From: a virus
Lineage: Duplodnaviria; Heunggongvirae; Uroviricota; Caudoviricetes
Length of the DNA: 64,000 nt
Strand: one strand, 5' to 3'
Virus record (IMG/VR): IMGVR_UViG_3300046047_000103
This document shows, one piece after another, positions 22,387 to 64,000 of the stretch. Position 1 is the first letter of the stretch. Each line of letters opens with the position of its first letter. The notes under the pieces are model-generated. The model worked only from the letters and a program-made list of their open reading frames with translations. It made no database searches and had not been told where the DNA came from. A program made the position numbers and the translations under genes.

Positions 22387-22995
22387 ATGATACGCGCAAT
22401 ACAGAGGGTAAGATCCCATCACGGATGGACGGGCATGCTTGTACTTCTCGGATCTGGAATGGGTCTGCTGGCATCGTTCATGCTTTCACTGGAAGCATAC
22501 TGGCGGGCGCTGAACCCGACTCAGGTGTTCTCATGTGACGTGAACGCGAAGCTCTCATGCTCCAGCGTGGCCGCGTCATGGCAGTCCACGCTCTTGCACT
22601 GGCCGGGCGGTGGAGCTATCCCGAACGCATTCCTCGGTCTTGGCATCTTCGCCGTGTTCGTGACGATCGGCGTGTTCATAGCGAGTCACGCGACCATCCC
22701 GGAATGGATACTCTGGGGCTTCAGATTGGGGGTCGTCGCTGAGCTGGTGTTCTCGACCTGGCTGTTATGGGAGTCGATGTTCGTGATCGGTGCGATGTGC
22801 CCATGGTGCCTGACCATGGATCTTGGATCCATCTTGCTTGCATTCGGTGCGTTCAGGGACTGGGCGCTTGCGAAGGGCGATCGGCATCCCAGAGCGTTGA
22901 GATTCACGATCGGAATGGAATCCCTGCTGGTATCTGTTCTCATCTTGCTAGCATTCGCCTTCATTGTCGTCTTGCATTACTTTGGATCAATTTAG
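22387..22995 (+). CDS. vitamin K epoxide reductase (VKOR) homolog
   Basis: Loop Cys pair CDVNAKLSC (Cx7C) plus the active-site CPWC in a TM helix. Polytopic. Confidence 0.65.
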   Translation: MIRAIQRVRSHHGWTGMLVLLGSGMGLLASFMLSLEAYWRALNPTQVFSCDVNAKLSCSSVAASWQSTLLHWPGGGAIPNAFLGLGIFAVFVTIGVFIASHATIPEWILWGFRLGVVAELVFSTWLLWESMFVIGAMCPWCLTMDLGSILLAFGAFRDWALAKGDRHPRALRFTIGMESLLVSVLILLAFAFIVVLHYFGSI

Positions 22996-23057
22996 TTTTG
23001 CAAAGCCCGTGATCTTTTGATATGATCGTATCATGTTCAATATGAGAGGAGCAGTGA

Positions 23058-30024: not shown

Positions 30025-31083
30025 CTACTTCTTCTTAGATCTGCGATACGTTCGCGGCTTCGGGGGATTCTGCTCCCAGATCGTCTTCACATCGTCAAGC
30101 GTGATCGTACGCGGATCGTTACCATCAGGAAGCGAGATGAACTGGGCTCGTCCCTTCGGTGTCTTCTTGAACCCGATCCATGGACCCCGCTTACCGATGC
30201 CAGTGAAGTAGCCCTCACCGATCTGTCGGGGAAGCTTGATCTCGCTGAACAGCTTGCTAGCAGCATCGAATGTGATCGTGTTCTCATCGTATCCATCTGG
30301 TATCGTCATGTTCACGGGCTTCGCGCTCTTCACCGGTGCGCCCTTCGTGTTCAGCTTCACGGCTTGCACGTATGCGCCGTACTTACCGCTCTTCGCCGTC
30401 AACTGGTAGCCAGCGTACGGACCGTCAGACAGTACTCCAAGAACATGATTCACGATCGGCTTCGCGTCGGCTAGCAGCTTCTTGCAAGCATTCGGGGATA
30501 GGGCGTCTTCACTGGTGAGAGCATCATCGTCCAATCTCACGCTCTTCACGTACCCGTCATCATTCTTCTGACCCGACGGATCTTCCAGCCATGCTCCTGC
30601 CTTGTTCACTCTCACCACGTACCCGCCGTTCAGATGGATCTCGGACAGCGTGTTGACCTCATCCCAATTGATGTTCTTGGCAAGTCCGTTCACCTTGCGG
30701 TCAATGCCGTCGGATCCCTTCCACGCCGTGTCCAGGAACTCCTTCAACGTGATCTTCCCGGACGCGATGTCGTCAAGCTGATCTTCCATGTGAGCGGTGA
30801 AGCCGTAATCAATGAAGTCGGGCATGGTCGCATCCAAGATCTGCGCGACCTTCATGCCGGTCCATGTCGGGACCATGGCCTTACCCTTCTTCTGGACGTA
30901 CCCGCGCTTCTGGTTAACGGTGACAAGATTCGCATACGTGGATGGCCGGCCGATGCCAAGCTCTTCCATCTTGGCGACCAGCTGCGGTTCCGTGTACCGT
31001 GGTGGCGGGGTAGTCGTATGGGTCTGTGGAGAGGCGTTCGAGATCACACACTCTTCCCCGACCTTGAAGTCATAGTCTGTCAT
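30025..31083 (-). CDS. topA: DNA topoisomerase IA, C-terminal cistron
   Basis: PPPRYTEPQLVAKMEELGIGRPSTYANLV. Its ATG overlaps the upstream TGA (TGATG) and is preceded by AGGAGGG. Confidence 0.8.
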   Translation of the reverse strand: MTDYDFKVGEECVISNASPQTHTTTPPPRYTEPQLVAKMEELGIGRPSTYANLVTVNQKRGYVQKKGKAMVPTWTGMKVAQILDATMPDFIDYGFTAHMEDQLDDIASGKITLKEFLDTAWKGSDGIDRKVNGLAKNINWDEVNTLSEIHLNGGYVVRVNKAGAWLEDPSGQKNDDGYVKSVRLDDDALTSEDALSPNACKKLLADAKPIVNHVLGVLSDGPYAGYQLTAKSGKYGAYVQAVKLNTKGAPVKSAKPVNMTIPDGYDENTITFDAASKLFSEIKLPRQIGEGYFTGIGKRGPWIGFKKTPKGRAQFISLPDGNDPRTITLDDVKTIWEQNPPKPRTYRRSKKK

Positions 31084-32504
31084 CAGTCCCTCCTACCGTC
31101 GTCATAGACCTTCAGGAATCCTGGGTCATCTATTCTTGTACTTGCCGTCGTGAAGACAGCCTTGCCGTCAGTTGACGTGATCGTGATCTTCTTCGTCACT
31201 CCACGGGCCGGATCCATCTGACTGGCCACGCTTCTCCTATAGACAAGATCGTACACGTCCCCGGCCTTGTCGTCGAATGCTGATCCGCCCGTCATCCTAC
31301 GGATCTTGGATGGGGCATAGAACACCCCGGTCGCCTCATCGATCACGGGACGGATGCATTCATGGCCCTCCTGCGCGTTCTTCGACTTTGACTTGTAGAC
31401 AATGGGCTTTGCCGGCATCTTGCCTCCATACTGCTTCCTGATGATAGCCCTGGCTGCATTGATCGCCTCGCTGGCCATTGCCGGGCTGTCCGTCCTGGAG
31501 TACGTCTGGTACGTGTGCTCGAAGAGCTGCTGGGCGATCGTCATAGATCTGCTTGCGGACAGTCCTAGCAGGCTTCCAACATTCTGCTGGTATGATGACG
31601 TGGTGTACGGGACGGGTGGACGTCTGGCGTACGGTCGTTCCGTGATGTCCGTGATCGTGTACGCTAATGTCTTCAAGTCGCTGACGGCCTGTTGCAGATC
31701 TTTACCTAGAAGGACGATCTTCCCCTTGTTCTTCAGCTTGCCGTCAGCCGTGAAGTCGCCGGATCCAGCCATCTTCCTGCCATTCCATTCGACGAGTGAC
31801 GCTGTGATCTCATTCGGTCTGCCTTCATTGAAGACAGCGTCAATAGATCCGTACTCTGATGGGATGAATCTGATCCGCTCCTTCTCCCGGTCGACCACGA
31901 GACGAAGCGCCGGACTCTGCGCCCTGCCGCCGGACGTTCCTGACCCTACGGTCTTCCAGAGGTACGGGCTGACGCTGAATCCGAAGAGACGATCATACTC
32001 CTGACGGGCTTGTGCAGACTGTGCTTTCAAGGTGTCCACAGATCCGTACGCTTCAAGTCCGGCAAGCACGGCCTTCTTCGTGATCTCATGCCATGATGCT
32101 CGCCTGACATCCATGTGCTGCTTCTTCAGATCGTTCTTAAGCGAGTCGGCCACCTCGTATCCGATGAGTTCGCCGGCTTCATCAGGGTCAGTGCTGACAT
32201 AGAAGTGCTTCCAGCGGCCAGATCTGACCGCATCCCTGATCTCATTCCATTGCTTCCTGTTCTGCGGATCGTGGTCAAGCAGCCGATCATAACTGCCATC
32301 ACTGACATTGATCGAGTATGATCCGTAGATCTGCTTCTCATCCTTGGAGAGCTTCTTCGGATCCTTCAGCTCGAACATGAATCCCTTGGTAGGCATGATC
32401 AGCCATTTGGATCCCAGGAATCCGGAGATCTCCCTAGCCTTCGTCGGTGACTCTACGATCATCAGACCGCCGTCGCTTAGTATCGTTTTGATGTCATCAC
32501 TCAT
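31083..32504 (-). CDS. topA: DNA topoisomerase IA, N-terminal cistron (Toprim plus catalytic Tyr)
   Basis: IVESPTKAREI, DPDEAGELIGYEV, SGRAQSPALRLV and QTYSRTDSPAMAS (catalytic Tyr). Confidence 0.85.
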   Translation of the reverse strand: MSDDIKTILSDGGLMIVESPTKAREISGFLGSKWLIMPTKGFMFELKDPKKLSKDEKQIYGSYSINVSDGSYDRLLDHDPQNRKQWNEIRDAVRSGRWKHFYVSTDPDEAGELIGYEVADSLKNDLKKQHMDVRRASWHEITKKAVLAGLEAYGSVDTLKAQSAQARQEYDRLFGFSVSPYLWKTVGSGTSGGRAQSPALRLVVDREKERIRFIPSEYGSIDAVFNEGRPNEITASLVEWNGRKMAGSGDFTADGKLKNKGKIVLLGKDLQQAVSDLKTLAYTITDITERPYARRPPVPYTTSSYQQNVGSLLGLSASRSMTIAQQLFEHTYQTYSRTDSPAMASEAINAARAIIRKQYGGKMPAKPIVYKSKSKNAQEGHECIRPVIDEATGVFYAPSKIRRMTGGSAFDDKAGDVYDLVYRRSVASQMDPARGVTKKITITSTDGKAVFTTASTRIDDPGFLKVYDDGRRD

Positions 32505-42613: not shown

Positions 42614-43738
42614 ATGCTGTACGGAATCAAGAAGAGTAATGACGGATCGGTTAAGATCACTCCGTGCAGAGCGAAGGATCCGGAGCACTGCCCGTATCAT
42701 ACGAAGCATGTGGAATGGTCTAAGCAGGAGTATCAGGATAAGATGGAAGAGCTGCTAGCGCCTGTCACCGGCAACAAGCTCAGCAAGATGTCCACAGACG
42801 GTGAATACGATGAACCGGCATCAATCATCATGTTCGATCATACGATACTAGATCATCTTGAGCATAAGAACTACGACCCCCAGTATGACATGATCGATGA
42901 CTACCGCAGTCTGGATACGGCTGGTCTTAGCGCTGGCGATGCAAGAGCAGTGAGGTCTCAGGCCGAGAACATTCTTGCTGACAGGATCAGCGCCAACAGC
43001 CCCGTGGCCGGCGACAGCATAGCCATGGAGCTCATCGAGGGCGATGATGAGCATCGTGGTCTTGGCAGGCCGTTCGCTATGAAGCTTCTTGAGCGCATGG
43101 ACGATCTGTCGTCAGACATGGCGAACGATCTGATCACATATGATCTCTCCACGGAGGGCGATGAAGATCATGCCGTCACGATGAAGATCATCAAGGACAC
43201 TGGCCGTCGGAACAAGTACGGGGTCCATCTGCATCGGATCGTATCCCAGCGTGGGGACATCAGCGACCCCATCGTGCAGGCAGCCGTGAAGAAGATCGAT
43301 TGGTCTAAGATGGATCTTGACATCTCATTCGGTGACAAGGTGTGGGATGACAAGGCCACCCGTGCGTCCATGGTAAGCAGGTTGAAGCGTCTGGCCCCGA
43401 AGAACGTGAGTCAGTCACTGTACGTTGATCTTTATGATCCGAGGGTCAAGCTCTCGTATGATCATAAGAATGAGCTTGCAGGCAAGTTGACCAGGTATGA
43501 TGACAGGGTTACGTTCTTGAAGAATCTTGATCTTGCCAATGATGTCGAGCCTGTTCGCATCATGTTTGATCATATGGATCGTGACCATAGTGCTAGCGGT
43601 TTTGCCTTCAAGTCGACCGTTGCCAGGGCGGTCACCGAGGGCCGTAAGGTGCACCGATCCATCCTCCATGAGATCGGGTTCGATGACGAGAAGGCGGCTG
43701 GGGTCTGGCTCCGAAAGCTTCAGGGAACTCATCGCTGA
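42614..43738 (+). CDS. Cys/His-module family protein
   Basis: N-terminal DGSVKITPCRAKDPEHCPYHTKHVEWSKQEYQDKMEE. Confidence 0.5.
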   Translation: MLYGIKKSNDGSVKITPCRAKDPEHCPYHTKHVEWSKQEYQDKMEELLAPVTGNKLSKMSTDGEYDEPASIIMFDHTILDHLEHKNYDPQYDMIDDYRSLDTAGLSAGDARAVRSQAENILADRISANSPVAGDSIAMELIEGDDEHRGLGRPFAMKLLERMDDLSSDMANDLITYDLSTEGDEDHAVTMKIIKDTGRRNKYGVHLHRIVSQRGDISDPIVQAAVKKIDWSKMDLDISFGDKVWDDKATRASMVSRLKRLAPKNVSQSLYVDLYDPRVKLSYDHKNELAGKLTRYDDRVTFLKNLDLANDVEPVRIMFDHMDRDHSASGFAFKSTVARAVTEGRKVHRSILHEIGFDDEKAAGVWLRKLQGTHR

Positions 43739-43838
43739 CCGTTAGCTTCGGCGCGTCTGAACGATCTGCGTGATACGATAGAATTGTTCGATGACGGAAG
43801 CACCGTTCTAGCGGACTGGCGGAGAATGGAATGGTAAG

Positions 43839-45323
43839 ATGGCAGATTCAAGGATCTGGGGATCCGGCGAGGCGAAGCCTATCCATATCAGTGACGATGG
43901 TCTGATACGGCCATGTGAAGATCCAGGGCATTGCAGATTCAAGGAGAGGAATCTGCAGGTCGCCGTGCGCGCGGATGCGGATCATGAATCCATGGTGCTG
44001 GCACTTGCCGCCAGACTCTTCCACGAGAATCTTCTCAAGCTCCCGGCTGGTCATATCGCCGTAAGAGACATGGATGAGCGCGGCATACCGATTACTGACG
44101 AGCATCTGGGATGGATGCCGTCACGACAAGCAGCGCTGCGGCAGCTGCGAGCATCTGGTCTCACAGATCTTGACCTGCTAGAGTCAGGTCTGGCTGATCT
44201 TGCCGCTGGAAGTACTGATCTACAGATCTTCGCTCATGACAGGCTGACGATCTCCGTCCATGATGCTGGCAGGGTGGCCGCATTCTATGCAAGATCATAC
44301 GCTGATAAGACCTGCGGCCCTAGGACAGCTAAGATCGGTGACGCTACGGCTACCATGACATCGGGTCTTAAGTACGTGAGGTCAAGACCGGCGTCATACA
44401 TGGTTCCGCCGCGTGATCCAAAGAGTCAGAGATTCACGAAGCCGTACGAGGACCCGATGTTCCTTCTTGACGAGAATCAGGGGGAGATCCGCAAGCGTGA
44501 CGCGATCATCATCGTGGAGGGTCAGCTGGATGCGCTTGCTTGCACGGCTGCGGGCATTAAGAACGTGGTGGCCATAGCCGGGATGACGAACTTCTACCAG
44601 CATCAGCTTGATGAGTGCAAGTGTCTGCTGACAAGCGCAGGCAAGATCATCCTATGCCTTGATGCGGATGACGCCGGTATCCGTGGTCTCTCCAGCGTGA
44701 TCAGAAGATTCCCGGATGAGGACATCCGTGCGTGCAGCCTGCCGGACGGGAAGGACCCCTGCGAGTACCGGGCTGAGCACGGTGACGACGCTCTGAGAAG
44801 AGCGCTTGATGATCATGAAGATGGTAAAAGGTTCATGGTCCGAAGGACGCCGTATGGTGAGATCCCGCGGCTTATCGCTGCCGTCAACGATGCTGGCAAG
44901 AGGGATGATCTGATACGATTCGCGGCAGGTCTTGACGCTAACACATGGACGGTTGACGGTCTTGCCGATCATGTCCGCAAGCTGTATCCGGTTGAGAGCC
45001 ATCATGCTCACCAGCGTCCGTACCGTGAGCGCAGGCGCTGGGTGAGAGCGCTTGGAGTCTATCCAGGCTCACTGACACCCAGTAAGAGCTTTGAGGATCG
45101 GTTACGATCTAATGACAGACTCAGACTGATCGCGTCCGTCGCCCTTCTGGCAAGACGAGATGGAGTCACCCTGGATAGCACTGTACGTAGCATGGTCCCA
45201 AAGAAGTTGAGATCCGCCGATGATGCTGACCCGATCTGGAAGATCGTGGAGGATGTCATGGATGAGGGATCTTTACAAGATCTTCTCGATAAGATCAGAT
45301 CCGCGACGTTACGGCATGTCTAA
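43839..45323 (+). CDS. Cys/His-module family protein with a Toprim domain (primase-like)
   Basis: N-terminal DDGLIRPCEDPGHCRF. Toprim signature IIIVEGQLDALACTAAGIKNVVAIAGMT...ILCLDADDAG. Confidence 0.55.
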   Translation: MADSRIWGSGEAKPIHISDDGLIRPCEDPGHCRFKERNLQVAVRADADHESMVLALAARLFHENLLKLPAGHIAVRDMDERGIPITDEHLGWMPSRQAALRQLRASGLTDLDLLESGLADLAAGSTDLQIFAHDRLTISVHDAGRVAAFYARSYADKTCGPRTAKIGDATATMTSGLKYVRSRPASYMVPPRDPKSQRFTKPYEDPMFLLDENQGEIRKRDAIIIVEGQLDALACTAAGIKNVVAIAGMTNFYQHQLDECKCLLTSAGKIILCLDADDAGIRGLSSVIRRFPDEDIRACSLPDGKDPCEYRAEHGDDALRRALDDHEDGKRFMVRRTPYGEIPRLIAAVNDAGKRDDLIRFAAGLDANTWTVDGLADHVRKLYPVESHHAHQRPYRERRRWVRALGVYPGSLTPSKSFEDRLRSNDRLRLIASVALLARRDGVTLDSTVRSMVPKKLRSADDADPIWKIVEDVMDEGSLQDLLDKIRSATLRHV

Positions 45324-45332
45324 GGGCCCCTT

Positions 45333-46613
45333 ATGATGATAGACTCCATGAACATGAACAGAACAAGGATCTACTTCTTACAGGGATGCCATGGATCCGG
45401 TAAGACTAATTTCATTGCTAGTAACGGACTTCAAGACTATACGGTGTCCATAGATGAGATCATAACGGCCTTGCATCCAACGGCCGACCGGTATGATCCG
45501 GTTACTGGGGAGATCCGATCCCATGAGGTTGATGTCACTAGGGACACCCTGTCATCAGCTCTTGACGTCGCGCAGTCCATCATCGAGCGTCGGATGCAGC
45601 TAGGCTCCGTCATCATCGTGGACTGGCTAGACGTGAAGCGGAGACGGATCGGTAAGATGATTGATCTCGCCTCGAAGTACCGGTACGGCGTGTCATTCGT
45701 TGACGTCCAGCGCGGGCTGACGCTCGATGAAGCTGTGGACAGATCGTATCCGTTATGGCCGCAGGATGAGGTCATGAAGACATGGACTGACAAGCACCAT
45801 TTCGAGTACGGTCGAGACGATGAGGTGATCACGCCAGCCGAGCTTGCCAGCAGGATGCATGTGAGTGAGGTCGATCTGTCCCCATATGATCGCGTCAACG
45901 TGGTTGGTGACATCCAGGGGTGCTTCCATGCGCTGGAGAGATCCGGTCTTGACAAGCATGCGGACAATGAGTACACGATCTTCTGTGGAGATCTGTTCGA
46001 CAGGGGTCCAGCTGATGAAGCCGGTCCGATGTTCGACTGGCTGGTTGATCATATCAGTGATGATCATATGACGTTCGTCCGTGGGAACCATGACTCGTAC
46101 ATCAAGTACTATGGTAATCCCGTGTACAAGCCGTACTCCAAGTCTACGGTCGACACGATCAATGAGATCATGCAGGATGCGGCCAGTGTCCGCGGATCGG
46201 ATAAGATGCTGCGCCGGCATGGTCACCGGATCAATGATGGGATGGTCGACTTCTTCCCGTTCAGGATCAATGGGAAGCATTACTTCGCATCTCATGCCGG
46301 TGTCCATCCGAATGATCTTCCGTACACAGATCTGGGAGGGTCGAGGACATATGAGATCGGCTTCGATACCGGAGCTAAGTACTGGTACGGAACAGGGTTA
46401 AGACCAGGATTCCATGACTACAGGATCGACATCGACAAGATCGTGGACGCTACGGACACTGACATCATCCAGTTCCATGGCCACAGGAATGAGTACAAGC
46501 ATCGTCCTGATGAGTACGGCAAGATCTTCAATCTTGAGACCGGAGTGGAGAAGGGCGGCAAGCTGAGTACGGCGACGATCGTGAACGGCGGGGTAACCAT
46601 CCAGCAATTCTGA
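45333..46613 (+). CDS. polynucleotide kinase-phosphatase-like protein (P-loop kinase plus calcineurin-like metallophosphoesterase)
   Basis: GCHGSGKTNF (T4 Pnk-like Walker A). GDIQGCF, FCGDLFDRGP and VRGNHD (metallophosphatase motifs). Confidence 0.6.
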   Translation: MMIDSMNMNRTRIYFLQGCHGSGKTNFIASNGLQDYTVSIDEIITALHPTADRYDPVTGEIRSHEVDVTRDTLSSALDVAQSIIERRMQLGSVIIVDWLDVKRRRIGKMIDLASKYRYGVSFVDVQRGLTLDEAVDRSYPLWPQDEVMKTWTDKHHFEYGRDDEVITPAELASRMHVSEVDLSPYDRVNVVGDIQGCFHALERSGLDKHADNEYTIFCGDLFDRGPADEAGPMFDWLVDHISDDHMTFVRGNHDSYIKYYGNPVYKPYSKSTVDTINEIMQDAASVRGSDKMLRRHGHRINDGMVDFFPFRINGKHYFASHAGVHPNDLPYTDLGGSRTYEIGFDTGAKYWYGTGLRPGFHDYRIDIDKIVDATDTDIIQFHGHRNEYKHRPDEYGKIFNLETGVEKGGKLSTATIVNGGVTIQQF

Positions 46614-46619
46614 CTCTGG

Positions 46620-47204
46620 TCACTTGGATCCGGTTGGCAGGTTCCGTCCCCACTGGATGAGCTCGGTGGTGACCGCACCATGGACGCCATCATCAATGGT
46701 GACGGTGATGATCTTGTGCTTCAGATCATCACCGTCACTGGTTGAGGTCTTCACGATCTTCCACTGCTTCCAGGCGGTGAGGTCAGACTTGTTCTCACCG
46801 GTCGCATGATCTTTCCGGATGCAGGTCTTCAGATCGTTCTTGGCATACGTGGCACGGATCATCATATGCAGATCATTGGTGTCAGCATCAGTACTCATGG
46901 TGACGGATGGGGTGCAGTCCCTCCACGTCTTGAACTGGATGATCAGGCTCTTGTCCGCATTCTGCTTCCACGATGGTGACGGGTCTCTAGACGGCAGCGT
47001 CGAATAGATGATCGACGGCTTGCTGATCTGTGAGATCGTGTACCCCCGGTCACCACGGTTGAGTGCGCTGATGACCGCAGGTGCGGATAGGGCCGCAACC
47101 AGCATGACGGCAAGCAGGGACATGAATACGATCTTATTCTTATCCCATCTGGAGGGAATCAGTTGCATGCGATCCATGATACCGCCCTGATATCTTGCTG
47201 TCAT
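46620..47204 (-). CDS. signal-anchored secreted hypothetical protein
   Basis: 194-aa ORF with an N-terminal TM. Confidence 0.4.
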   Translation of the reverse strand: MTARYQGGIMDRMQLIPSRWDKNKIVFMSLLAVMLVAALSAPAVISALNRGDRGYTISQISKPSIIYSTLPSRDPSPSWKQNADKSLIIQFKTWRDCTPSVTMSTDADTNDLHMMIRATYAKNDLKTCIRKDHATGENKSDLTAWKQWKIVKTSTSDGDDLKHKIITVTIDDGVHGAVTTELIQWGRNLPTGSK

Positions 47205-47213
47205 GGTTGATGA

Positions 47214-47651
47214 TTGCAGGAGTGCAGCGGCGTCCAGATGAAGATCTTAGGATTCAGGGGCATGAAGAGATGGACTACTGATCCATCATATGTGAGATCG
47301 AGTGACCCCAGGGTATGGAGGAACATGGATGACGATACCCTGAACACCCTGGTGTCAGTGCTGGATACGCAGCCCGATGACGATGAGAACTATCCCCTGC
47401 TCGATCTGCTTGACGAGCATCATTGCTATATTGTCGATGACCTGATGGTGGTCTCTCCACCGTCACCGGTAAGAATCGGTGACAGCTGGTGCATCCATGT
47501 AGCCAGGAATCTGAAATGGTTCGATGGTGTTGATGATGAGAACGCTGGATCCGACATGCAAGATCTGATCTCATATGAGGGCAAGGACATCTCATCCGTC
47601 ATTGATGATGACGGGCGTGTAGATCTTATCGTGAACGTGGATCAGTCATGA
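47214..47651 (+). CDS. hypothetical acidic protein
   Basis: 145-aa ORF. Its stop overlaps the next start. Confidence 0.4.
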   Translation: MQECSGVQMKILGFRGMKRWTTDPSYVRSSDPRVWRNMDDDTLNTLVSVLDTQPDDDENYPLLDLLDEHHCYIVDDLMVVSPPSPVRIGDSWCIHVARNLKWFDGVDDENAGSDMQDLISYEGKDISSVIDDDGRVDLIVNVDQS

Positions 47652-48085
47652 CCGTGATCACGTCCCCGGAGCGGATACCAGAGCATGCTGGCTGCTTCCT
47701 TGCCGGAGGGACATCGAACTGTCCTGACTGGCAGCATGATGTTCTCGCGACGCTGGATGCAGGTGACGGCAGGGTGATAGCAAACCCGCGGAGGAGAGGA
47801 TCGTTCCGCCCGGAGGATGCGGAGGATCAGATCACCTGGGAGTGGAATGCGATGCGGGTGAGCAGGATGATCTCATTCTGGTTCCCGTGCGAGACGCTGT
47901 GCCCGATCGCCCTATTCGAGCTTGGCAAGGCTATCATGAGGACAAGCGTGCGGACAGTCGTCGGCGTCCATCCCTCTTATGCCCGTAAGATGGACATTGA
48001 GACGCAATTAGGGCTGGAACGATCTGACATCATGATCGTGTACAGTCTTGATGACCTGTTGCGGATGATACGGATGACGATCTGA
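47648..48085 (+). CDS. nucleoside 2-deoxyribosyltransferase-like (Rcl/DNPH1-family) protein
   Basis: FLAGGTSNCPDWQ and CPIALFELGKAI resemble the family's Rossmann-like and G..E.G motifs. Confidence 0.4.
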   Translation: MTVITSPERIPEHAGCFLAGGTSNCPDWQHDVLATLDAGDGRVIANPRRRGSFRPEDAEDQITWEWNAMRVSRMISFWFPCETLCPIALFELGKAIMRTSVRTVVGVHPSYARKMDIETQLGLERSDIMIVYSLDDLLRMIRMTI

Positions 48086-48096
48086 TATCATTCATC

Positions 48097-48498
48097 ATGA
48101 ATGGTAATGATCGATGGGAGGTAAGCATGGACGAGAATGGTAAGATCACGTATGATGATCCGTCTAATAAGGATAGATCTGTGGCTAGTGAGAGTCAGGT
48201 GCGTAAAGATCGTTCACAGTATGCTTCCACGCAGATGCCAATCGACGTGAATGCTCCGGTGAAGTCTAAGATCGTTGCTGGTCTGTTAGGCGTCTTCCTC
48301 GGAATGTTCGGTGCCCATAACTTCTATCTCGGTAAGACGTCCAAGGCTATGACGCAGCTACTCATGACGGTATTATCGCTTGGAATCCTCAGCTTCGTGA
48401 GTGAGGCATGGGGCTTCATCGAGGGGATCATGATACTGTCTAGCCAGACCGGATCCCCATGGCATCTTGACGGGTATGGAAGAGATCTGACTGATTGA
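48097..48498 (+). CDS. TM2 domain membrane protein
   Basis: KSKIVAGLLGVFLGMFGAHNFYLGKTSKAMTQLL. Confidence 0.65.
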   Translation: MNGNDRWEVSMDENGKITYDDPSNKDRSVASESQVRKDRSQYASTQMPIDVNAPVKSKIVAGLLGVFLGMFGAHNFYLGKTSKAMTQLLMTVLSLGILSFVSEAWGFIEGIMILSSQTGSPWHLDGYGRDLTD

Positions 48499-48577
48499 TT
48501 TGATGAACGATCTGTGATTCTGTAAATAAGTTGCATGAATCCAGATTATGTGGTATAGTGAATTCTGTAAGGTTCGC

Positions 48578-48785
48578 GGCCATGTCGGAGAGTTCTTCTA
48601 CTCGCATAAAATCAATGCTCCGGCGCCTTCCACGATCTTCAGTAGTGATAATTGAATGAGGCCATCTGCAAGAGTTCTTCTCTTTTCATAGGATAAAAAA
48701 TGCTTGCAGGCTTTCCTCTATTCTTTTTGATCGTATTGGGGCGGTGGTCAGGAATGGCCATCGCCTTTTTCATACGATAATGATC
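48578..48785. promoter_or_regulatory. Three direct repeats of a ~40-bp motif (GGCCAT..TTCTTCT..TCATA.GATAA) upstream of the 837-aa ORF
   Basis: ggccatgtcggagagttcttctactcgcataaaatcaatgc / ggccatctgcaagagttcttctcttttcataggataaaaaatgc / ggccatcgcctttttcatacgataatgatc. Confidence 0.55.
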
Positions 48786-48795
48786 AGGAGGACAT

Positions 48796-51309
48796 ATGAG
48801 GGTTACCACGAGGGAAGAGCTTATCAACGGGAAGCATGAGAACGATCAGGGCGGATCTGACCATGCAGATCGGGATACGATCATTGACGATCGTTCCATT
48901 GCTGGCAAGGACGTGGGCTCACGCGAGGACACGATCATGTCAGATCTGTACAAGGCGAACAAGTATCTTGTCTTGAATAAGGGTCAGATCTTCATTCCGA
49001 AGACCGACCTGCTTGCCAGGATATCGGTTGACCATAAGACTGCCGGCCATGATGACCTCATTGCATTCACGGCGAACGCGATCTCCCTGAACTATGTGAT
49101 CAATTGGAGGGGAGGCCATGGCGACCCGGACGCAGATGATCTTTTCGGAGCGTTCGATGGGCTCAACCCGACAAGCGTGGGAGTGCTGGAGTCCGCGCTC
49201 AGCGTTCTGAAGGACTCCCGCGGAATCGTCGTCGACTATTCATACGAACCGATGTACCCCGACTTCCCGAAGCAGGTGGTCGAAGCGTCTGATGAAGAGC
49301 TGATCGTGAATGCGTTCATGCATTACCTCGGTGACCTGGTCGGTGCTCGCATCATGCCCGACTACAAGCCGTCTGACAGGCTCCCCCTCATTGATGGCGT
49401 GAAGCCGGTCTCTTTGACGGTGATTGATCAGGGTCCGCTGATCGAGGCGTACCAGACCGTGATCTCATCTGGTCAGGTATGGTCTGATGATCAGAAAGAC
49501 TTCGTGCGCGGCGTGGTCAGCGTCTTGGGGACATCAGTGACTGCACCGGCGCAGCCAGGATACCCGAAGATCAGGGAGAACGCCGTTCTGCTGTACTCCC
49601 TGTTCAAGAACGTCGTTCTTATCAAGAGCCCGACTGACGTTCTTCGTCTTGCTGCTCTGTACTCGGATGGTGACCCGTCGCTGGCCGCGCCAACAAGATT
49701 CAAGTTGACGAGGTCGCAGAGGCGTGAGATCATGCATCTGCTTACTAACGTGCTTACGCATAGTGAGGACAATGAGTTCATCAGTGATGAGTTCTATAAG
49801 CATGCGGAGGAATGGAAGCGTCTCGCCACCACGCTTCATCACTGGGAGCTGACGAAGAAGGATCAGGCGACGACGCAGGCGTCCCAATGGCTGAACAAGG
49901 TCCAGCAGGGCGAGTCAGAGTCGCTTGATGGACAGATCGATCGTGACTTCCAGGACATTCTGCATCCATCTGCTCTCAGGGCAGCGTACATCAGTAGTCC
50001 AAGCTATGATGGAAGACTTGACGGTTATGATCTTATCAAGGATCTGAGCAAGCGTCCAGGCGTCTATGCTCGTCGTCTTGTCGAAGCTCTCCGTAAGACT
50101 CCGGTCGAGTATCACGATGCTATCATCAGTGGGTTCAAGAACGTGGCCGGGAGGATAAGCAATCGGGTTCTTATCCAGATGTGGGGTCTGTTCACGACTC
50201 GGATCGAGGGCAAGGTGACCGACCTGCCGATGAGATCTGTCATCGAGAGAACAGCGCATGGTCAGAAGAGCGTTCTGATCGATAACAAGATCTTCGATGA
50301 CGTGACGGTTGATGAGGCTAGGAAGATCGTATCCATCATCGAGGAAGCGCTGACCTCCCATAAGAAGCAGATCTTGACGAAGTTCATTGATGACAAGAAT
50401 AGCTCGTACGTGGTTCCGATGGGCGTGTCGTCAGCAAGCTCTGGCGTGCGGATCATTGGACGCGGATCTAGGTTCAAGATCAGTGACTGGTCCAGGGACA
50501 AGGTGGTAAGGCTCTTCGTCCACTGGCACGATCTTACCGAACCCGATCTGGATTCATACGACAATTCAAGAGTAGATCTTGATCTGTCGGCCGTGCTCTA
50601 TTCATACGATCTGAAGACGTCAAGGCAGGTGTCATACACGAATCTGCGTGAGGGCCGCGCCGTGCATTCAGGCGACATCACGAGCGCACCTGAAGGCGCG
50701 TCTGAGTTCATTGACATACCGGTGAGGGAGGCTCTGGCTTCAGGCGTGCGGTACGTGATGCCATCAGTCTACTCGTTCACGCGCCAGAGGTTCTCTACTA
50801 TTCCGGAGGCGTGGGCTGGCGTCATGATGAAGACGGAGCTTGGTCAGCAGACCGGTGAGATCTTTGACGCCAGGACGGTTGCACAGAAGTGGGATCTGAC
50901 GAAGAACTCCATGAACTTGACCCCATTCGCGCTTGACATGCAGACAGGTGAGGTCATCTGGATGGACTCTGATGTCGGATCAGATCAGTACTTGAACAGG
51001 GTTGACGGGAATGAGAACATGCTCGCTCTCCAGCTCCGATCCGCGCTGTACACTCGTGTGATGCCGGTACGGAAGGCCGTGGAGCTGCTGTCCAATCCGG
51101 TTGCACCTGCGGGAGGTCTCCCGACCCCGTCCACGATCCATTCTAAGATGCTTAAGGTCGTGAATGGAAGGAAGTTCCCCTCCGCAGATCTTCCAGACAA
51201 GGCTATCATCAAGAAGGCGAATCCGTCCGACAAGGACTATGATTCCAGCAGCATGAGGACCATCCGTGGTGACGACGCCGCCGCGATCTTGTCACTGATG
51301 TCAGATTGA
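48796..51309 (+). CDS. large hypothetical protein
   Basis: 837-aa ORF after a CAGGAGG RBS. Confidence 0.55.
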   Translation: MRVTTREELINGKHENDQGGSDHADRDTIIDDRSIAGKDVGSREDTIMSDLYKANKYLVLNKGQIFIPKTDLLARISVDHKTAGHDDLIAFTANAISLNYVINWRGGHGDPDADDLFGAFDGLNPTSVGVLESALSVLKDSRGIVVDYSYEPMYPDFPKQVVEASDEELIVNAFMHYLGDLVGARIMPDYKPSDRLPLIDGVKPVSLTVIDQGPLIEAYQTVISSGQVWSDDQKDFVRGVVSVLGTSVTAPAQPGYPKIRENAVLLYSLFKNVVLIKSPTDVLRLAALYSDGDPSLAAPTRFKLTRSQRREIMHLLTNVLTHSEDNEFISDEFYKHAEEWKRLATTLHHWELTKKDQATTQASQWLNKVQQGESESLDGQIDRDFQDILHPSALRAAYISSPSYDGRLDGYDLIKDLSKRPGVYARRLVEALRKTPVEYHDAIISGFKNVAGRISNRVLIQMWGLFTTRIEGKVTDLPMRSVIERTAHGQKSVLIDNKIFDDVTVDEARKIVSIIEEALTSHKKQILTKFIDDKNSSYVVPMGVSSASSGVRIIGRGSRFKISDWSRDKVVRLFVHWHDLTEPDLDSYDNSRVDLDLSAVLYSYDLKTSRQVSYTNLREGRAVHSGDITSAPEGASEFIDIPVREALASGVRYVMPSVYSFTRQRFSTIPEAWAGVMMKTELGQQTGEIFDARTVAQKWDLTKNSMNLTPFALDMQTGEVIWMDSDVGSDQYLNRVDGNENMLALQLRSALYTRVMPVRKAVELLSNPVAPAGGLPTPSTIHSKMLKVVNGRKFPSADLPDKAIIKKANPSDKDYDSSSMRTIRGDDAAAILSLMSD

Positions 51310-57950: not shown

Positions 57951-58469
57951 TTGGCAGATCATTCCGCCGGTCGTAGAGTGAACAAGCAGATCAGGTCTAA
58001 GAGGATCACTCTGATCGACATCAATGGTAAGAACGTTGGCGTGTACGATACGGATGTGGCTCTACAGATGGCCGAACGTGATGGATACGATCTGATAGAG
58101 ATGAATGATCATCAGGATCCCCCTATCGTGAAGATCGGTGATTACTCCAGGGAGAAGTACAAGCAGCAGCAGCGTGAGAAGCAGCAGCGGAAGAGTGCTC
58201 GAGCTCAGCAGGTCAAGGAGATCAGGCTGGGTCCGAAGATCGGTGAGCATGATCTTGAGACCAAGTGCAATCAGGCGCTCAAGTTCTTGCAGAGCGGTGA
58301 TAAGGTGAAGTTCAACGTCCAGCTCCGTGGCCGTGAACGTGATCACAGGTCGATCGCATTTGACCTCATCAACAAGGTCGCCAAGTCCCTGGCCGAGGAC
58401 AGCGTGGTCTCAACGCAAGCGTCGGCTAATGGCTCGTTCGTCAGCATGACTCTCTCGCCGTTGCGCTAG
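57951..58469 (+). CDS. infC: translation initiation factor IF-3
   Basis: Matches across both IF-3 domains (RLIDINGKNVGV, DLIEMNDHQDPPIVKIGDY, VKEIRLGPKIGEHDLETK, QSGDKVKFNVQLRGRE). The ORF begins with TTG. Confidence 0.8.
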   Translation: MADHSAGRRVNKQIRSKRITLIDINGKNVGVYDTDVALQMAERDGYDLIEMNDHQDPPIVKIGDYSREKYKQQQREKQQRKSARAQQVKEIRLGPKIGEHDLETKCNQALKFLQSGDKVKFNVQLRGRERDHRSIAFDLINKVAKSLAEDSVVSTQASANGSFVSMTLSPLR

Positions 58470-58508
58470 TACGGCATGTCTTCACGGACGACGTGATATG
58501 ATCGTCAT

Positions 58509-59972
58509 GTGGAGGTGATGAGATTGATGATGAAGAATGGTAAGGTCATGATAGATGACCAAGATCTCTCCGTTGAGATCGGTGAAGCGAAGCGGCTTGG
58601 ATCGCAGTACGCGGAGTCAGATCACGATCTTGCTCTTGTTGGAGGACCGGTACGTGACCTGATGCTCGGATCGCATCCGAAGGACTTCGATATGACCACG
58701 GACGCCAGACCGGATGTCTCCGAGCGGATCTTGAAGGCGTGGGGATCGTCATTCTGGAACGTGGGTAAGAAGTACGGTACGATCGGTGCTGGCAGGGATG
58801 TCAGCAATGGTGTCCACATGGACGTCGAGGTCACCACGTACCGCAGCGATTCGTATGATGGGCGATCTCGCAAGCCTGCCGTGAAGTGGGGATCATCCCT
58901 GGAGGGTGACCTGCATCGTCGTGACTTCACCATGAATGCAATGGCCATCACCCTCCCCGGAATGAAGCTCGTGGATCCGTTCCATGGAGCGGAGGCTATA
59001 AAGAACAAGATCATCATGACGCCGGGTTCCCCGTATGACTCATTCAATGATGACCCGCTGCGGATGCTTCGTGCGGTCAGGTTCGCTGGCAAGCTTGGAT
59101 TCCATCTTGACGGCAGGGTGCTTGACGCGATCCGTGAGATGGCGCCGCGTCTGGATGAGATCAGCCGTGAACGGGTGTCTGACGAGTTGTCGAAGATCAT
59201 GCTGTCCGCCCATCCTGTGGACGCTCTGAAGCTGATGATGGATTCAGGTCTGATGGATCATGTGCTTCCTGAGTTCTCGGAGCTGAAGAGAAGTGATGCG
59301 ACGAGCCGTGGGATGCATAAGCTGAATTACGAGCATTCCCTCACGGTGCTGGAGAACGCGATCAGCATGGAGGACAGGCTCGGTAACGGGCCAGATCTGA
59401 TTCTTCGACTGTCCGCATTGCTTCATGATGTCGGCAAGGCCAGGACTCGCAGGTTCAATGGTCGCAGGAAGGTCACGTTCGACCAGCATGAATTCGTTGG
59501 TGCAGACATGATTCGGAAGCGTCTGAGGGCATTGAAGTATCCGAATGACGTGGTGAAGACCGTGAGTGATCTTATCGGACTGCATATGAGGGCTCACGGG
59601 TATGAGAGCAACGGATGGACTGATTCAGCCGTGCGGAGATTCGTGCATGAGGTTGGACCGTTGTATGATCGTCTCATGATTCTTACAAGAGCGGATGTGA
59701 CCACGTCCCATGCATCAAAAAAGGTGCGGGTGATGAAGAGCATCGACTCTCTTGAAGCGCATGTGGACAAGCTCTGGAAGATGGACGATCTGAATGCTGT
59801 CAGACCTGAGATCGATGGGAATGAGATCATGAAGATCCTTCAGATTCGACCTGGTAAGATCGTTGGCCAGTGCTATCGTCATATGCTTGAGTACAGGATC
59901 GTGAACGGTGCGGTCGGCCATGCAGCCGCGGTCCAGGAGCTGAAGAGATTCTACGCGGAGATCGCAGGTTGA
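58509..59972 (+). CDS. cca: CCA-adding tRNA nucleotidyltransferase with an HD domain
   Basis: LVGGPVRDLMLG, DFDMTTDARP, RRDFTMNAMA and LHDVGK. Confidence 0.8.
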   Translation: MEVMRLMMKNGKVMIDDQDLSVEIGEAKRLGSQYAESDHDLALVGGPVRDLMLGSHPKDFDMTTDARPDVSERILKAWGSSFWNVGKKYGTIGAGRDVSNGVHMDVEVTTYRSDSYDGRSRKPAVKWGSSLEGDLHRRDFTMNAMAITLPGMKLVDPFHGAEAIKNKIIMTPGSPYDSFNDDPLRMLRAVRFAGKLGFHLDGRVLDAIREMAPRLDEISRERVSDELSKIMLSAHPVDALKLMMDSGLMDHVLPEFSELKRSDATSRGMHKLNYEHSLTVLENAISMEDRLGNGPDLILRLSALLHDVGKARTRRFNGRRKVTFDQHEFVGADMIRKRLRALKYPNDVVKTVSDLIGLHMRAHGYESNGWTDSAVRRFVHEVGPLYDRLMILTRADVTTSHASKKVRVMKSIDSLEAHVDKLWKMDDLNAVRPEIDGNEIMKILQIRPGKIVGQCYRHMLEYRIVNGAVGHAAAVQELKRFYAEIAG

Positions 59973-60517
59973 TCTGATCCGTGATGGAAGTAGATCGTAT
60001 CGATCCCCGGTCCCCGATGATCTTTCAAGACCTTGCCTACCGTCCAGCCCCTCTTCCCAAGGATATGGATCTGCGTGGCGTTAGTGCTCCATGTTCTGAG
60101 CCATATGCCCTCCGGGTGCATGGACTTGACGGTCGAGTACAGGGCGTGAGCATGGCCCTGACCGCGATGATCCCCACGAATGGCTATCACCTGCAGATAC
60201 GTCACGTCATGCAGATCTGCATCGTCCTCGTCATGATGTGATTTTATGATGGCTATTCCGACAAGTTCACGATCATCATAGAGGAAGACTCCTTCAAGCC
60301 CTATCAGCTCTTGCACATACCCGTCAAGGCCCGATGGGAAGCGTGTGGACAGTGGCGGGAGGAACATGCTGTCCACATCAGCGAGTAACGATCTGATCTC
60401 AATCTTCATGGTGTCAGGAATGTGGTCAATGATCGTCAAGGCAACGGGTTTCTTATCCATGAGGATGTCCTTGTATAGGGTCGATACTGATGTGAGGTCT
60501 TGCTCGATGCAGATCAA
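59951..60517 (-). CDS. GNAT-family acetyltransferase (tentative)
   Basis: IAIRGDHRGQGHAHALY resembles GNAT motif A. Confidence 0.4.
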   Translation of the reverse strand: MICIEQDLTSVSTLYKDILMDKKPVALTIIDHIPDTMKIEIRSLLADVDSMFLPPLSTRFPSGLDGYVQELIGLEGVFLYDDRELVGIAIIKSHHDEDDADLHDVTYLQVIAIRGDHRGQGHAHALYSTVKSMHPEGIWLRTWSTNATQIHILGKRGWTVGKVLKDHRGPGIDTIYFHHGSDQPAISA

Positions 60518-62015: not shown

Positions 62016-62089
62016 CGGGTCGTAGCCCAGCTTGGTAGGGCGCCTCGTTCGGGACGAGGAGGCCGCGGGTTCAAATCCCGCCAACCCGA
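62016..62089 (+). tRNA. tRNA-Pro (anticodon CGG)
   Basis: Cloverleaf folded by hand. D arm gccc/gggc, anticodon arm cctcg-ttcggga-cgagg, T arm gcggg-ttcaaat-cccgc. One C.A mismatch in the acceptor stem. No encoded CCA. Confidence 0.7.
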
Positions 62090-62180
62090 CACGCCGTGGG
62101 AACACGATTGTCAACGACCGTGTTATCATGGATAACGCCGCGCTTCACGGAGCGTCGATAACTTAAGAATGCACCATCAA

Positions 62181-62254
62181 CGGGATGTAGCGCAGCTTGG
62201 TAGCGCGCTTGCTTTGGGAGCAAGATGCCGCAGGTTCGAATCCTGTCATCCCGA
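62181..62254 (+). tRNA. tRNA-Pro (anticodon UGG)
   Basis: Acceptor cgggatg/catcccg is a perfect pair. Anticodon arm cttgc-tttggga-gcaag. T arm gcagg-ttcgaat-cctgt. Confidence 0.75.
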
Positions 62255-62792
62255 CGATGATCGCCTGATTCTCGTGACTGACTGATCGAGTGACGCTCGT
62301 GAAGATCAGCCGCGATGGTGATCTGAATAACTGAATACAGAACTGCTCGCACCAGTTGGAAGCAAAGTGCGCGACGGCCCGGGTACCGGAATGTGAAAGA
62401 ACTCACCCTGCTTGGTCACGAAGATCACCATGTAGTCGATGGTGCAGTGACGGAGCGCCTGAATACAGGATCGAGCATGGGGAAGCCATCGCCCTGATTC
62501 TTGAAGGTCCGTATGGATCTGATGGAGATGTACATTGTACGTCAGCAACGCGATGATAACTCATGAACGGGATTACCAGCGTCATTCATGGAATGTTGAC
62601 GACCCGTAGACATAAACAAGTTCCTTCAGATTATCTTCAAAACGATGCAGATCTGCGGTCGGTGCGATGCAGATCTGAGGTCGTCGTCCCACCGGTGAGA
62701 TGCACCGGCAACCGTTGATGATGCTGTGACCGCATCATTGACAGCACATGTGGTCATCGTCGTGCTGGCGGACGTGAAACGCCAGTTCTTAT

Positions 62793-62867
62793 TCCCCGGG
62801 AGCAACCTTCGGCGGCTGCGATCGACTGTTAATCGATAGAGAGCTGGTTCGACTCCAGTCCGGGGAG
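62793..62867 (+). tRNA. tRNA-Asn (anticodon GUU), with an atypical D arm
   Basis: Acceptor tccccgg/ccgggga. Anticodon arm atcga-ctgttaa-tcgat. T arm gctgg-ttcgact-ccagt. The D region is 2 nt longer than canonical. Confidence 0.55.
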
Positions 62868-63069
62868 CGATGGTTGAAAAGGGCGAAGATTGTTAAAAGA
62901 TTGCTCATCATTCTGAATCCACGTGGTAGCTCCTCGTGGACGATGATAGGAAAGTCCGGAATCGAAAACTGATGACGATCATACTCTGGTCAATGTGCCA
63001 TACAATCGGGAGGTCCATATCGTAATTCAGCGAGGCCTAGCGAGTAATTGACCTCAAGGTCCATCCAAT

Positions 63070-63146
63070 GCTTTCATGGCCCAATCGGCAGAGGCGCAGG
63101 GCACACTGCAGACCTGTTCATACTGGTTCGACTCCAGTTGGAAGCA
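63070..63146 (+). tRNA. tRNA-like element with a non-canonical anticodon region (possible pseudo- or unusual tRNA)
   Basis: Good acceptor (gctttca/tggaagc) and T arm (actgg-ttcgact-ccagt), and a D arm of the Leu/Ser type (ccaatcggcagaggc). No 5-7-5 anticodon hairpin can be drawn; the best fit is gcagg-gcacactgcaga-cctgt with a 12-nt loop. Confidence 0.3.
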
Positions 63147-63259
63147 CGCAGTATCAGTAGGCTATGAGCTGGCAGCGTGACGCAAGTCATCTTGGTTATC
63201 TGTGACCACCAGCGAGCTGAATGCAATAGCAGACGGGTGAGTGCAAGGCTCACCATCAT

Positions 63260-63344
63260 GGATGATTCGCATAGAGGCCTAGTGCACTTGTCTTGAAAAC
63301 AAGAGTGGGTCACACCACCGGGGGTTCGAATCCCTCATCATCCG
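63260..63344 (+). tRNA. tRNA-Ser (anticodon UGA), type II
   Basis: Acceptor ggatgat/atcatcc is a perfect pair. 3-bp D stem. Anticodon arm cttgt-cttgaaa-acaag. Long variable arm gtgg-gtcaca-ccac. T arm ggggg-ttcgaat-ccctc. Confidence 0.75.
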
Positions 63345-63454
63345 CGACCCGTACGTTGGGTCCATCTGGCGACACGATGGATTGGCGGTCCATCTTCTCC
63401 TGGCGGGGGATAGCCGGTTGATGTGATCGCATACGGATTGCATCGCATACAGAT

Positions 63455-63539
63455 GCCCTCATGGCTGGAATAGGTAGACGCGGACGGCTCAAACCCGTCT
63501 CCCGTAATGGGGATCTCGGTTCGACTCCGAGTGAGGGTA
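63455..63539 (+). tRNA. tRNA-Leu (anticodon CAA), type II
   Basis: Acceptor gccctca/tgagggt. D loop ggaataggtagac. Anticodon arm gacgg-ctcaaac-ccgtc. Long variable arm. T arm ctcgg-ttcgact-ccgag. Confidence 0.7.
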
Positions 63540-63804
63540 CGACGAACACATCGGGCGGCTTAATCACCCGTCCGGTCGTGGGCATACATATGTCGCGCGT
63601 GGACGTGATTGATCCACGTGGATAGCCCGTTGCCAGGCATGTCCCGGCGGAAGTTTGATGCAGATTCTGCGTAGTTCGTCTTCCGTTGGGATCACTTGAA
63701 GACAGGTGCGGCCCGTTGGCTGCGGTGGAAGTGGGGTCCGAGTACCCAACGGTACCGGTTAGACTCCGGCTCCGGCGCGTGGGAACTCATCCATCTCCAT
63801 ATCT

Positions 63805-63878
63805 GCTCTCTTAGCCCAATTGGTAGAGGCGATAGACCAAGGATCTATTCAGTGCGGGTTCGAGTCCCGTGGAGAGCA
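63805..63878 (+). tRNA. tRNA with an unusual anticodon loop CCAAGGA (apparent anticodon AAG, with C at position 33)
   Basis: Acceptor gctctct/ggagagc. Anticodon arm ataga-ccaagga-tctat. T arm gcggg-ttcgagt-cccgt. Confidence 0.45.
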
Positions 63879-64000
63879 CAGATCTCATGACATCCTTACG
63901 GATGTCCTCTGAGATTCAGGGTCGATTCACTGTGGTGGTGATGAACATGCTCAAGGCCCGTCATGCAAGCATAGGAGTATGGAGCGAAGTTCCTATGTGG

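Follow-up and report, generated by a model that had tools for sequence, protein, structure and literature searches.

A two-domain Pnkp-like protein of a jumbo gut phage: a ligase-less, kinase-remodelled form of known end-healing enzymes

Introduction

In annotation, and often in interpretation too, phage enzymes resembling Pnkp usually pass for complete machines for the repair of tRNA breaks. The question raised by the locus described here is whether such a reading fits a member of the family that ends directly after its phosphatase domain and has exchanged key arginines in its kinase site. The gene in question lies at 45333..46613 on the forward strand of a 64,000-nucleotide stretch of the IMG/VR record IMGVR_UViG_3300046047_000103 (Caudoviricetes), referred to below as the window, and the phage that carries it is a jumbo gut phage. 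A sequence-only reading of the same DNA had proposed a working kinase/phosphatase end-healer engaged in tRNA break repair; this proposal is not supported, given the loss of kinase arginines and the absence of a ligase nearby. The best explanation, which we hold with moderate confidence, is that the protein would heal 3' ends only, acting on them as a phosphoesterase (2',3'-cyclic phosphodiesterase / 3'-phosphatase), while its non-canonical N-terminal domain probably binds nucleoside triphosphate (NTP). What is new at this locus is a ligase-less, kinase-remodelled form of known Pnkp-type end-healing enzymes.

Domain architecture and ancestry

The gene consists of an open reading frame (ORF) of 426 residues plus a stop codon and is identical to family member P0001. 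It encodes a two-domain Pnkp-like protein, composed of an N-terminal Pnk-type P-loop domain (approximately residues 12-175; 45366..45857, +) and a C-terminal binuclear metallophosphoesterase domain (approximately residues 185-426; 45885..46610, +). The true start may lie up to about eight codons further downstream, because candidate ATG codons stand at 45333, 45336, 45351 and 45357. The ORF and the motifs GCHGSGKT, GDIQG, GDLFDRG and GNHD reported by the sequence-only reading are all present as quoted.

Both domains find their best profile and structural match in the Pnkp of Clostridium thermocellum (CthPnkp; 4gp6, 4gp7 and 4jst for the kinase, 4j6o for the phosphatase), in which the same order is seen, an N-terminal Pnk-type P-loop domain being followed by a lambda-phosphatase-like metallophosphoesterase. 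The family profile reached 4j6o at E = 2e-21 and 4gp7 at E = 1.9e-17, while Pfam returned Metallophos at E = 2e-10 and the P-loop kinase family AAA_33 at E = 1.4e-4, the latter under its gathering score. The E-values of these domain matches rule out a chance cluster of motifs. A pseudogene was also considered and rejected, since several contigs carry identical copies of an intact ORF whose structure model is of high confidence and whose phosphatase site is conserved. The phage protein differs from CthPnkp in having neither a C-terminal ligase domain nor a Hen1 neighbour, no match to Hen1 or a methyltransferase being found by Pfam or PHROG among the neighbouring genes. It scores 27.1 bits against the Pnkp-Hen1 equivalog model TIGR04075, whose cut-off is 750 bits, and its relatives reach 38-76 bits in colinear matches.

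The closest described phage family is PHROG 8238, labelled 'RNA ligase', which matched at E = 2e-58 (residues 12-424 against positions 3-387 of a profile of 737). Its three-domain proteins (~720-860 residues) share 27-29% identity over ~95% of the phage protein, together with GDxxDRG, GNH, HGHR and E402. They carry a C-terminal Rnl1-type ligase, whereas the protein studied here stops past the phosphatase: its C-terminus, at residue 426, directly follows that domain and no ligase domain is appended. Because of the PHROG label, two-domain proteins of this kind risk mis-annotation as ligases.

Comparison with other end-healing and phosphoesterase systems supports the assignment to the bacterial Pnkp arrangement rather than the T4 type, as had been suggested from the motifs alone. 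The phosphatase of T4 Pnkp (PseT) is described as a HAD/DxDxT acylphosphatase (PMC3592404) and not a metallophosphoesterase; no HAD (DxDxT) domain is present here, T4 residues R38 and R126 have no counterpart, and T4-type membership was rejected on the missing domain. Capnocytophaga gingivalis Pnkp1 (4xrp) is also a two-domain kinase-phosphatase whose ligase is a separate protein, and its kinase is homologous (profile E = 4e-10), but its phosphatase is of the T4 (HAD) type and thus of a different superfamily (PMC4411300), on which ground membership of this type was rejected too. Pnkp1 acts in complex with Rnl and Hen1, neither of whose genes was found near the phage gene. The lambda Ser/Thr phosphatase (1g5b) and the ApaH/PrpE enzymes share the binuclear metallophosphoesterase fold with GDxxDRG and GNH, but their profile score is lower (5.7e-15 over 86 positions, as opposed to the full-domain match to 4j6o), they lack a fused Pnk domain and they have His rather than Gln in motif I. 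As to a possible grouping with Ser/Thr protein phosphatases, a point raised by the sequence-only reading, the CthPnkp phosphatase outranks the lambda phosphatase, a weak discrimination because the CthPnkp phosphatase itself has a lambda-phosphatase-like fold (PMC3675462).

The phosphoesterase site

For residue states, 181 family members were aligned with the CthPnkp kinase (CthPnk) and T4 Pnk. Within the CthPnkp phosphatase set (D187, H189, D233, R237, N263, H264, H323, H376 and D392), seven of nine residues are identical in the phage protein, namely D187, D233, R237, N263, H264, H323 and H376. All of the motifs concerned lie on the forward strand. Motif I, G-D193-I-Q195-G (residues 192-196; 45906..45920), provides D193 as the equivalent of D187 and places Q195 at the His189 position; motif II, G-D220-L-F-D223-R224-G (residues 219-225; 45987..46007), corresponds to D233, D236 and R237; and motif III, G-N252-H253-D (residues 251-254; 46083..46094), to N263 and H264. 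Further downstream, the metal ligand H321 (46293..46295) is equivalent to H323, and the H382-G-H384-R385-N motif (46476..46490) contributes H384, which is equivalent to the metal ligand H376. The remaining position, D392, which contacts a metal-bound water, is occupied by E402 (46536..46538), a Glu shared by 162 of the 181 members.

The two substitutions, H189 to Q195 and D392 to E402, differ in what is known of their consequences in the clostridial enzyme. The D392E mutant of CthPnkp is active; H189D leaves it with 2',3'-cyclic phosphodiesterase activity only, and H189Q and H189N are poor enzymes (PMC3675462). Measured against the PPP motifs, GDxxDRG and GNH are present, and motif I has Gln in place of the His of GDxHG. 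Across the family, the His189 position is Gln in 59 of 181 members and His in 120, and 21 ligase-fused proteins are among those with Gln. Since Gln is a common natural state that also occurs in ligase-fused members, it is presumably tolerated functionally in the family background. Six core phosphatase residues are retained in 177 of the 181 members, including every full-length member with a lesioned kinase site, and on this residue pattern the phosphoesterase site appears clearly to be under constraint.

The kinase site

The N-terminal domain presents a different picture, in which the nucleotide-binding elements are kept while the arginines that act on the acceptor and the phosphates are replaced. 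The Walker A motif or P-loop, G18-C-H20-G-S-G-K24-T25 (45384..45407, +), supplies K24 and T25 as the equivalents of CthPnk K21 and S22. Within it, H20 occupies the position of CthPnk Ser17, a residue that touches the gamma-phosphate, and His is found there only in P0001-P0004, i.e., in 4 of the 181 members. In the acceptor-site helix, D41-E-I-I44 (45453..45464, +), D41 is retained at the general-base position (Cth D38, T4 D35), and Ile44 stands at the position of Cth R41 and T4 R38, where 169 of the 181 members have Arg and the present protein has the sole Ile. In the lid, R137-S-Y-P-L141 (45741..45755, +), the base-stacking Arg is retained (R137, equivalent to Cth R116), and Leu141 occupies the gamma/beta-phosphate Arg position (Cth R120, T4 R126), which is Arg in 170 of the 181 members. 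Additionally, the Cth R123 position is deleted, Leu99 stands at Cth T80, and D97 is retained; in the structure model, YPLWP forms the loop that joins the two lid helices.

With respect to the characterized enzymes, both catalytic sets are incomplete. Of the CthPnk set (K21, S22, D38, R41 and the lid residues R120/R123), the equivalents of R41, R120 and R123 are missing, and in CthPnk, R41 is essential for kinase activity and R120 is important, functionally redundant with R123 (PMC3902929). T4 Pnk depends on six essential kinase residues, K15, S16, D35, R38, D85 and R126 (PMC2831316); K24, T25 and D41 represent this set here, R38 and R126 are replaced by I44 and L141, and the D85 position is W98, a position at which CthPnk also differs from T4, with Ala. 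The present protein has no basic residue at D+3 or D+4. In its relatives the Cth R41 position is Leu (P0002 and P0003) or Met (P0004), each of these having an Arg one residue later, and in P0007 both the P-loop Lys and the Asp are gone. The N-terminal domain probably still binds NTP, given that no member of the clade has given up the P-loop, D41, D97 or R137. Relative to P0002, identity amounts to 45% in the kinase domain against 58% in the phosphatase domain, the kinase diverging faster within the clade.

Taken as residue states, these replacements suggest that 5'-OH polynucleotide kinase activity is probably weak, absent or altered. The kinase is not called dead, because mammalian PNKP is an active DNA kinase without a counterpart of R38 (PMC2831316) and because the His at the Ser17 position is specific to the clade.

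Ligase fusion and linkage across the family

A ligase was sought in the window and in the related genomes. Among 58 greedily chosen, non-overlapping window ORFs of at least 133 residues, no ligase family of Pfam was matched, a further 14 chosen ORFs of 70-134 residues lying outside that scan; a hidden Markov model (HMM) of the fused ligase domain, run against a six-frame translation of the 64-kb window, gave a best E of 0.25 and no ligase. For four neighbours in this set, at 47214-47651, 47648-48085, 48097-48498 and 48796-51309, the check was made with PHROGs and precomputed Pfam assignments. The gene thus sits in a ligase-free stretch of 45 kb upstream and 17 kb downstream, and the earlier statement that the window holds no ligase stands for the ORFs scanned and the six-frame search. 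No ligase was found within the available flanks of P0004 and P0002. In a large-database search with 13 fused and free ligase modules, 45 proteins were recovered, none of them from the 349,703-bp contig described below or from the 491,046-bp contig of P0004, the sensitivity of this search being limited by a shared-word prefilter with which only Rnl1-type ligases could be found.

The family in which this absence has to be read is large and mostly ligase-fused. An exhaustive HMMER search of 1.84 billion representatives returned 941 clusters with E <= 1e-3, of which 611 reach E <= 1e-10; the best 150 matches almost all cover both the kinase and the phosphatase, and 113 phage records match the family by tblastn. 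A pattern search for related loci based on GDLFDRG only recovered mostly generic phosphoesterases, kinase and phosphatase domains occurring together in 7 of 35 loci. The 181 collected sequences comprise 118 three-domain proteins (~650-930 residues) and about 60 two-domain proteins (~380-500 residues). The third domain belongs to PF09511; its nearest profile matches are the ligase domain of fungal Trl1 (6e-18) and T4 Rnl1 (1.7e-12), and the nucleotidyl-transferase motifs KxNG, EGxV and KxK are intact in it; the long phage relatives therefore carry an Rnl1/Trl1-type ligase and not the Pnkp-type ligase module of CthPnkp. Cultured members include Staphylococcus phage Twort ORF008 (754 residues), Kayvirus, SPbeta-like Bacillus phages and Brochothrix phage A9, and go by labels such as 'RNA ligase', 'tRNA ligase' or 'polynucleotide kinase' only. 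A literature search turned up no enzymology for the PHROG 8238 phage family; according to Iyer et al. (2021), a few jumbo phages seem to rely on calcineurin-like domains as the phosphatase of RNA repair. As a separate observation, phages with the three-domain enzyme often encode a small NinI/lambda-type phosphoesterase nearby (L013 6599-7204, L014 12199-12804, L048 2739-3446), and in Twort such a gene, ORF049, lies two genes upstream of ORF008.

Where the ligase is not fused, it is frequently close at hand. Nine two-domain relatives whose kinase site is intact were inspected for their flanks, and in six of them an Rnl1-type ligase gene lies nearby: in P0012 it runs into the 3' end of the kinase-phosphatase gene, it is adjacent and divergent in P0008 and P0010, and lies 2.5-6.5 kb off in L038, L043 and L047. 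No RNA ligase was found near P0005, whose neighbours are NAD-dependent DNA ligase and SbcCD-like genes, near P0017, which has a bacterial chromosomal context, or near L037, whose contig stops ~3.4 kb downstream of the gene. The P0017 gene (L051 1589-3115) begins 4 nt past a gene of the VapB antitoxin family, which hints at a toxin-antitoxin-like wiring of some members. In the clade without R41, none of three members (the window, P0004 and P0002) has a linked ligase within the available flanks. Eleven of 60 two-domain members are lesioned at K21, D38 or R41, as compared with 3 of 118 three-domain members (Fisher p = 5e-4, uncorrected for phylogeny), which leaves the kinase site intact in 115 of the 118 proteins that carry their own ligase.

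Proposed explanation

The family thus forms a gradient, from fused ligases through split but linked ones to ligase-less proteins with kinase lesions, along which the phosphatase is invariant, and it is this gradient that leads to the reading of the phage protein as a 3'-end phosphoesterase. The ancestor would have been a phage- or plasmid-borne heal-and-seal enzyme combining a Pnk-type kinase, a Pnkp-type metallophosphoesterase and an Rnl1/Trl1-type ligase. In the jumbo-phage clade the ligase would then have been lost or unlinked and, as a 5'-phosphate would be required only where an ATP-dependent ligase seals the break, selection on the kinase may have been relaxed or redirected, allowing the acceptor and lid arginines to be replaced. 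The Mn2+-type phosphoesterase would have continued to clean polynucleotide 3' ends. We infer this order of events, the enzymatic activities and RNA (rather than DNA) as the substrate from residue states and linkage patterns. The phage protein alone probably does not reseal cut tRNAs, because the ligase is gone, key kinase residues are lost and only the 3'-end phosphatase looks fully intact.

Several observations weigh against this explanation. The retained P-loop and Asp, the gain of His20 and the shifted Arg of P0002-P0004 suggest remodelling of the kinase over decay. The inspection for a ligase spans 64 kb of a genome of ~350 kb, of which ~286 kb lies beyond it, and the lesion counts given above may represent perhaps ~8 independent events. 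Furthermore, the poor performance of H189Q and H189N in CthPnkp means that the phosphoesterase with Gln195 could differ from the prediction.

Genomic context

Immediately upstream, a DnaG/Toprim-type primase gene (43839..45323, +) ends 9 nt before the Pnkp-like gene, with which it is possibly co-transcribed; its downstream neighbour is encoded on the opposite strand, and a promoter and terminator scan around the gene gave no signal above background. Over 21 kb, the window is identical to contig Ga0455797_000015 of JGI (L001; 349,703 bp). A near-identity DNA search with positions 43000-49000 found no match among annotated phages, and an exact-string scan of viral_contigs and metagenome_contigs with the last 41 nt of the window was also without a match. 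Look-ups of the first and last window proteins returned short Logan contigs only, all of which fall inside the window.

The translation-related genes that the sequence-only reading had listed are all confirmed in the window, where IF-3 (57951-58469, +) lies directly upstream of a CCA-adding enzyme with a PolyA_pol head, an RNA-binding domain and an HD domain (58509-59972, +), followed by a cluster of seven tRNA genes (62016..63879, +), five of which are also found by Rfam. Their union with the Pnkp-like gene in a joint RNA repair and translation toolkit was not borne out: the parts lie 11-17 kb downstream of it, with unrelated genes between (including a nucleoside deoxyribosyltransferase-like protein, a TM2 protein, a CHAP lysin and a clamp loader), and the tie amounts to co-occurrence only.

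Within the tRNA cluster, the tRNA-like gene at 63070-63147 (+) is assigned a four-base anticodon, 'actg', by ARAGORN and scores 36.5 bits as an Rfam tRNA; its minimum-free-energy fold has an irregular anticodon arm, and the gene may specify an unusual phage tRNA, for instance one of frameshift-suppressor type, or may just be a mis-call. The ARAGORN predictions of Asn-GTT (62793-62868, +) and Leu-CAA (63455-63540, +) tRNAs are missing from Rfam at the gathering threshold. On the opposite strand, a GNAT acetyltransferase gene overlaps the end of the CCA gene (57951-60517 region).

Other parts of the window have peculiarities of their own. Type IA topoisomerase I is encoded in two adjacent ORFs at 30025-32504 (-), one with Toprim and Topoisom_bac positions 4-287, the other with Topoisom_bac positions 299-410 and a C-terminal repeat; the split is conserved rather than an assembly error, since it is repeated in a related phage contig (L049 82-2573), where it adjoins the Pnkp-like gene of that phage. 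A 139-residue ORF at 14879-15298 (+) corresponds to the C-terminal part of an FtsH-type Peptidase_M41 only (E = 1.4e-30), with no AAA domain, and represents a remnant of a gene or else a protease fragment that stands alone. Host-like membrane and envelope genes are unusually many for a phage (DUF805, LemA, VKOR, TelA, SPFH/flotillin and TM2; 8671-9507, 16044-16616, 22387-24305, 28004-29407 and 48097-48498). A 924-residue protein at 17733-20507 (+) has a single match, to a GHKL-type ATPase domain at its N-terminus (HATPase_c_3, E = 6e-8).

Alternative explanations

The most serious competitor, which we regard as possible yet somewhat unlikely, is a fully bifunctional end-healer with 5'-kinase and 2',3'-phosphatase activities, whose products an unlinked phage or host ligase would use to reseal tRNAs cut by anticodon nucleases. 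The Pnkp-type architecture and ancestry of the protein are established, the clade as a whole conserves the P-loop, D41, D97 and R137, and His20, or in P0002-P0004 the Arg at D+4, might compensate for the replaced arginines; mammalian PNKP works without an R38 counterpart. Translation genes of the phage's own (tRNAs, a CCA-adding enzyme and IF-3) also speak for it; some jumbo-phage RNA repair systems contain calcineurin-like phosphatases, as Iyer et al. note; and the part of the genome inspected for a ligase leaves room for one elsewhere. What makes this explanation less probable than a 3'-end phosphoesterase is that the essential R41/R38 and the important R120/R126 (essential in T4 Pnk) are both absent, with no basic residue at D+3 or D+4 in their stead, that neither the window nor, within the limited sensitivity of the search, the 349,703-bp and 491,046-bp contigs yielded a ligase, and that most of the inspected two-domain relatives with an intact kinase (six of nine) keep theirs closely linked. 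Considerably less likely is a role in phage DNA replication or repair, in which the protein would serve, in the manner of mammalian PNKP, as a DNA 3'-phosphatase and perhaps a modified DNA 5'-kinase that readies ends for a DNA ligase. The missing counterpart of T4 Arg38 is a trait shared with mammalian PNKP, and the neighbours are suggestive: the primase gene 9 nt upstream on the same strand, the split topoisomerase I beside P0002, and NAD-dependent DNA ligase (LigA) and SbcCD-like genes near P0005. These neighbours, however, differ between relatives.

At least as doubtful is the idea that the conserved phosphoesterase would clear 3'-phosphate or 2',3'-cyclic phosphate from tRNAs whose 3' ends host nucleases have trimmed, so that the phage CCA enzyme could rebuild them, the remodelled P-loop domain serving as an NTP-dependent RNA-binding or regulatory module and not as a 5'-kinase; if true, this would amount to tRNA 3'-end repair without kinase or ligase. 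The link is weakened by the fact that bacterial CCA enzymes already possess, in their HD domains, phosphatase and cyclic phosphodiesterase activities. Least supported, and in our judgement very improbable, is a function away from nucleic-acid ends altogether, as a lambda-like Ser/Thr protein phosphatase or a phosphodiesterase that degrades immune-signal nucleotides of the host, with a regulatory or binding P-loop. The CthPnkp phosphatase is the best profile match and alone covers the full domain, the Pnk-type fusion and the family-wide link to RNA ligase point to polynucleotide ends, and the phosphate-binding residues R224 and H253, which CthPnkp uses in RNA end healing, are conserved.

Conclusions and perspectives

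The value of the locus is mainly evolutionary and as an annotation case. The protein stands at the reduced end of the family gradient, in which fused enzymes give way to split but linked ones and these to ligase-less proteins with an eroding kinase. If its reading as a 3'-end phosphoesterase is right, domain architecture alone cannot give the function of such enzymes, and the activity under constraint would be 3'-end dephosphorylation. The clade would then serve as a natural experiment, showing which polynucleotide kinase residues can be dispensed with when there is no longer a ligase to use the 5'-phosphate.

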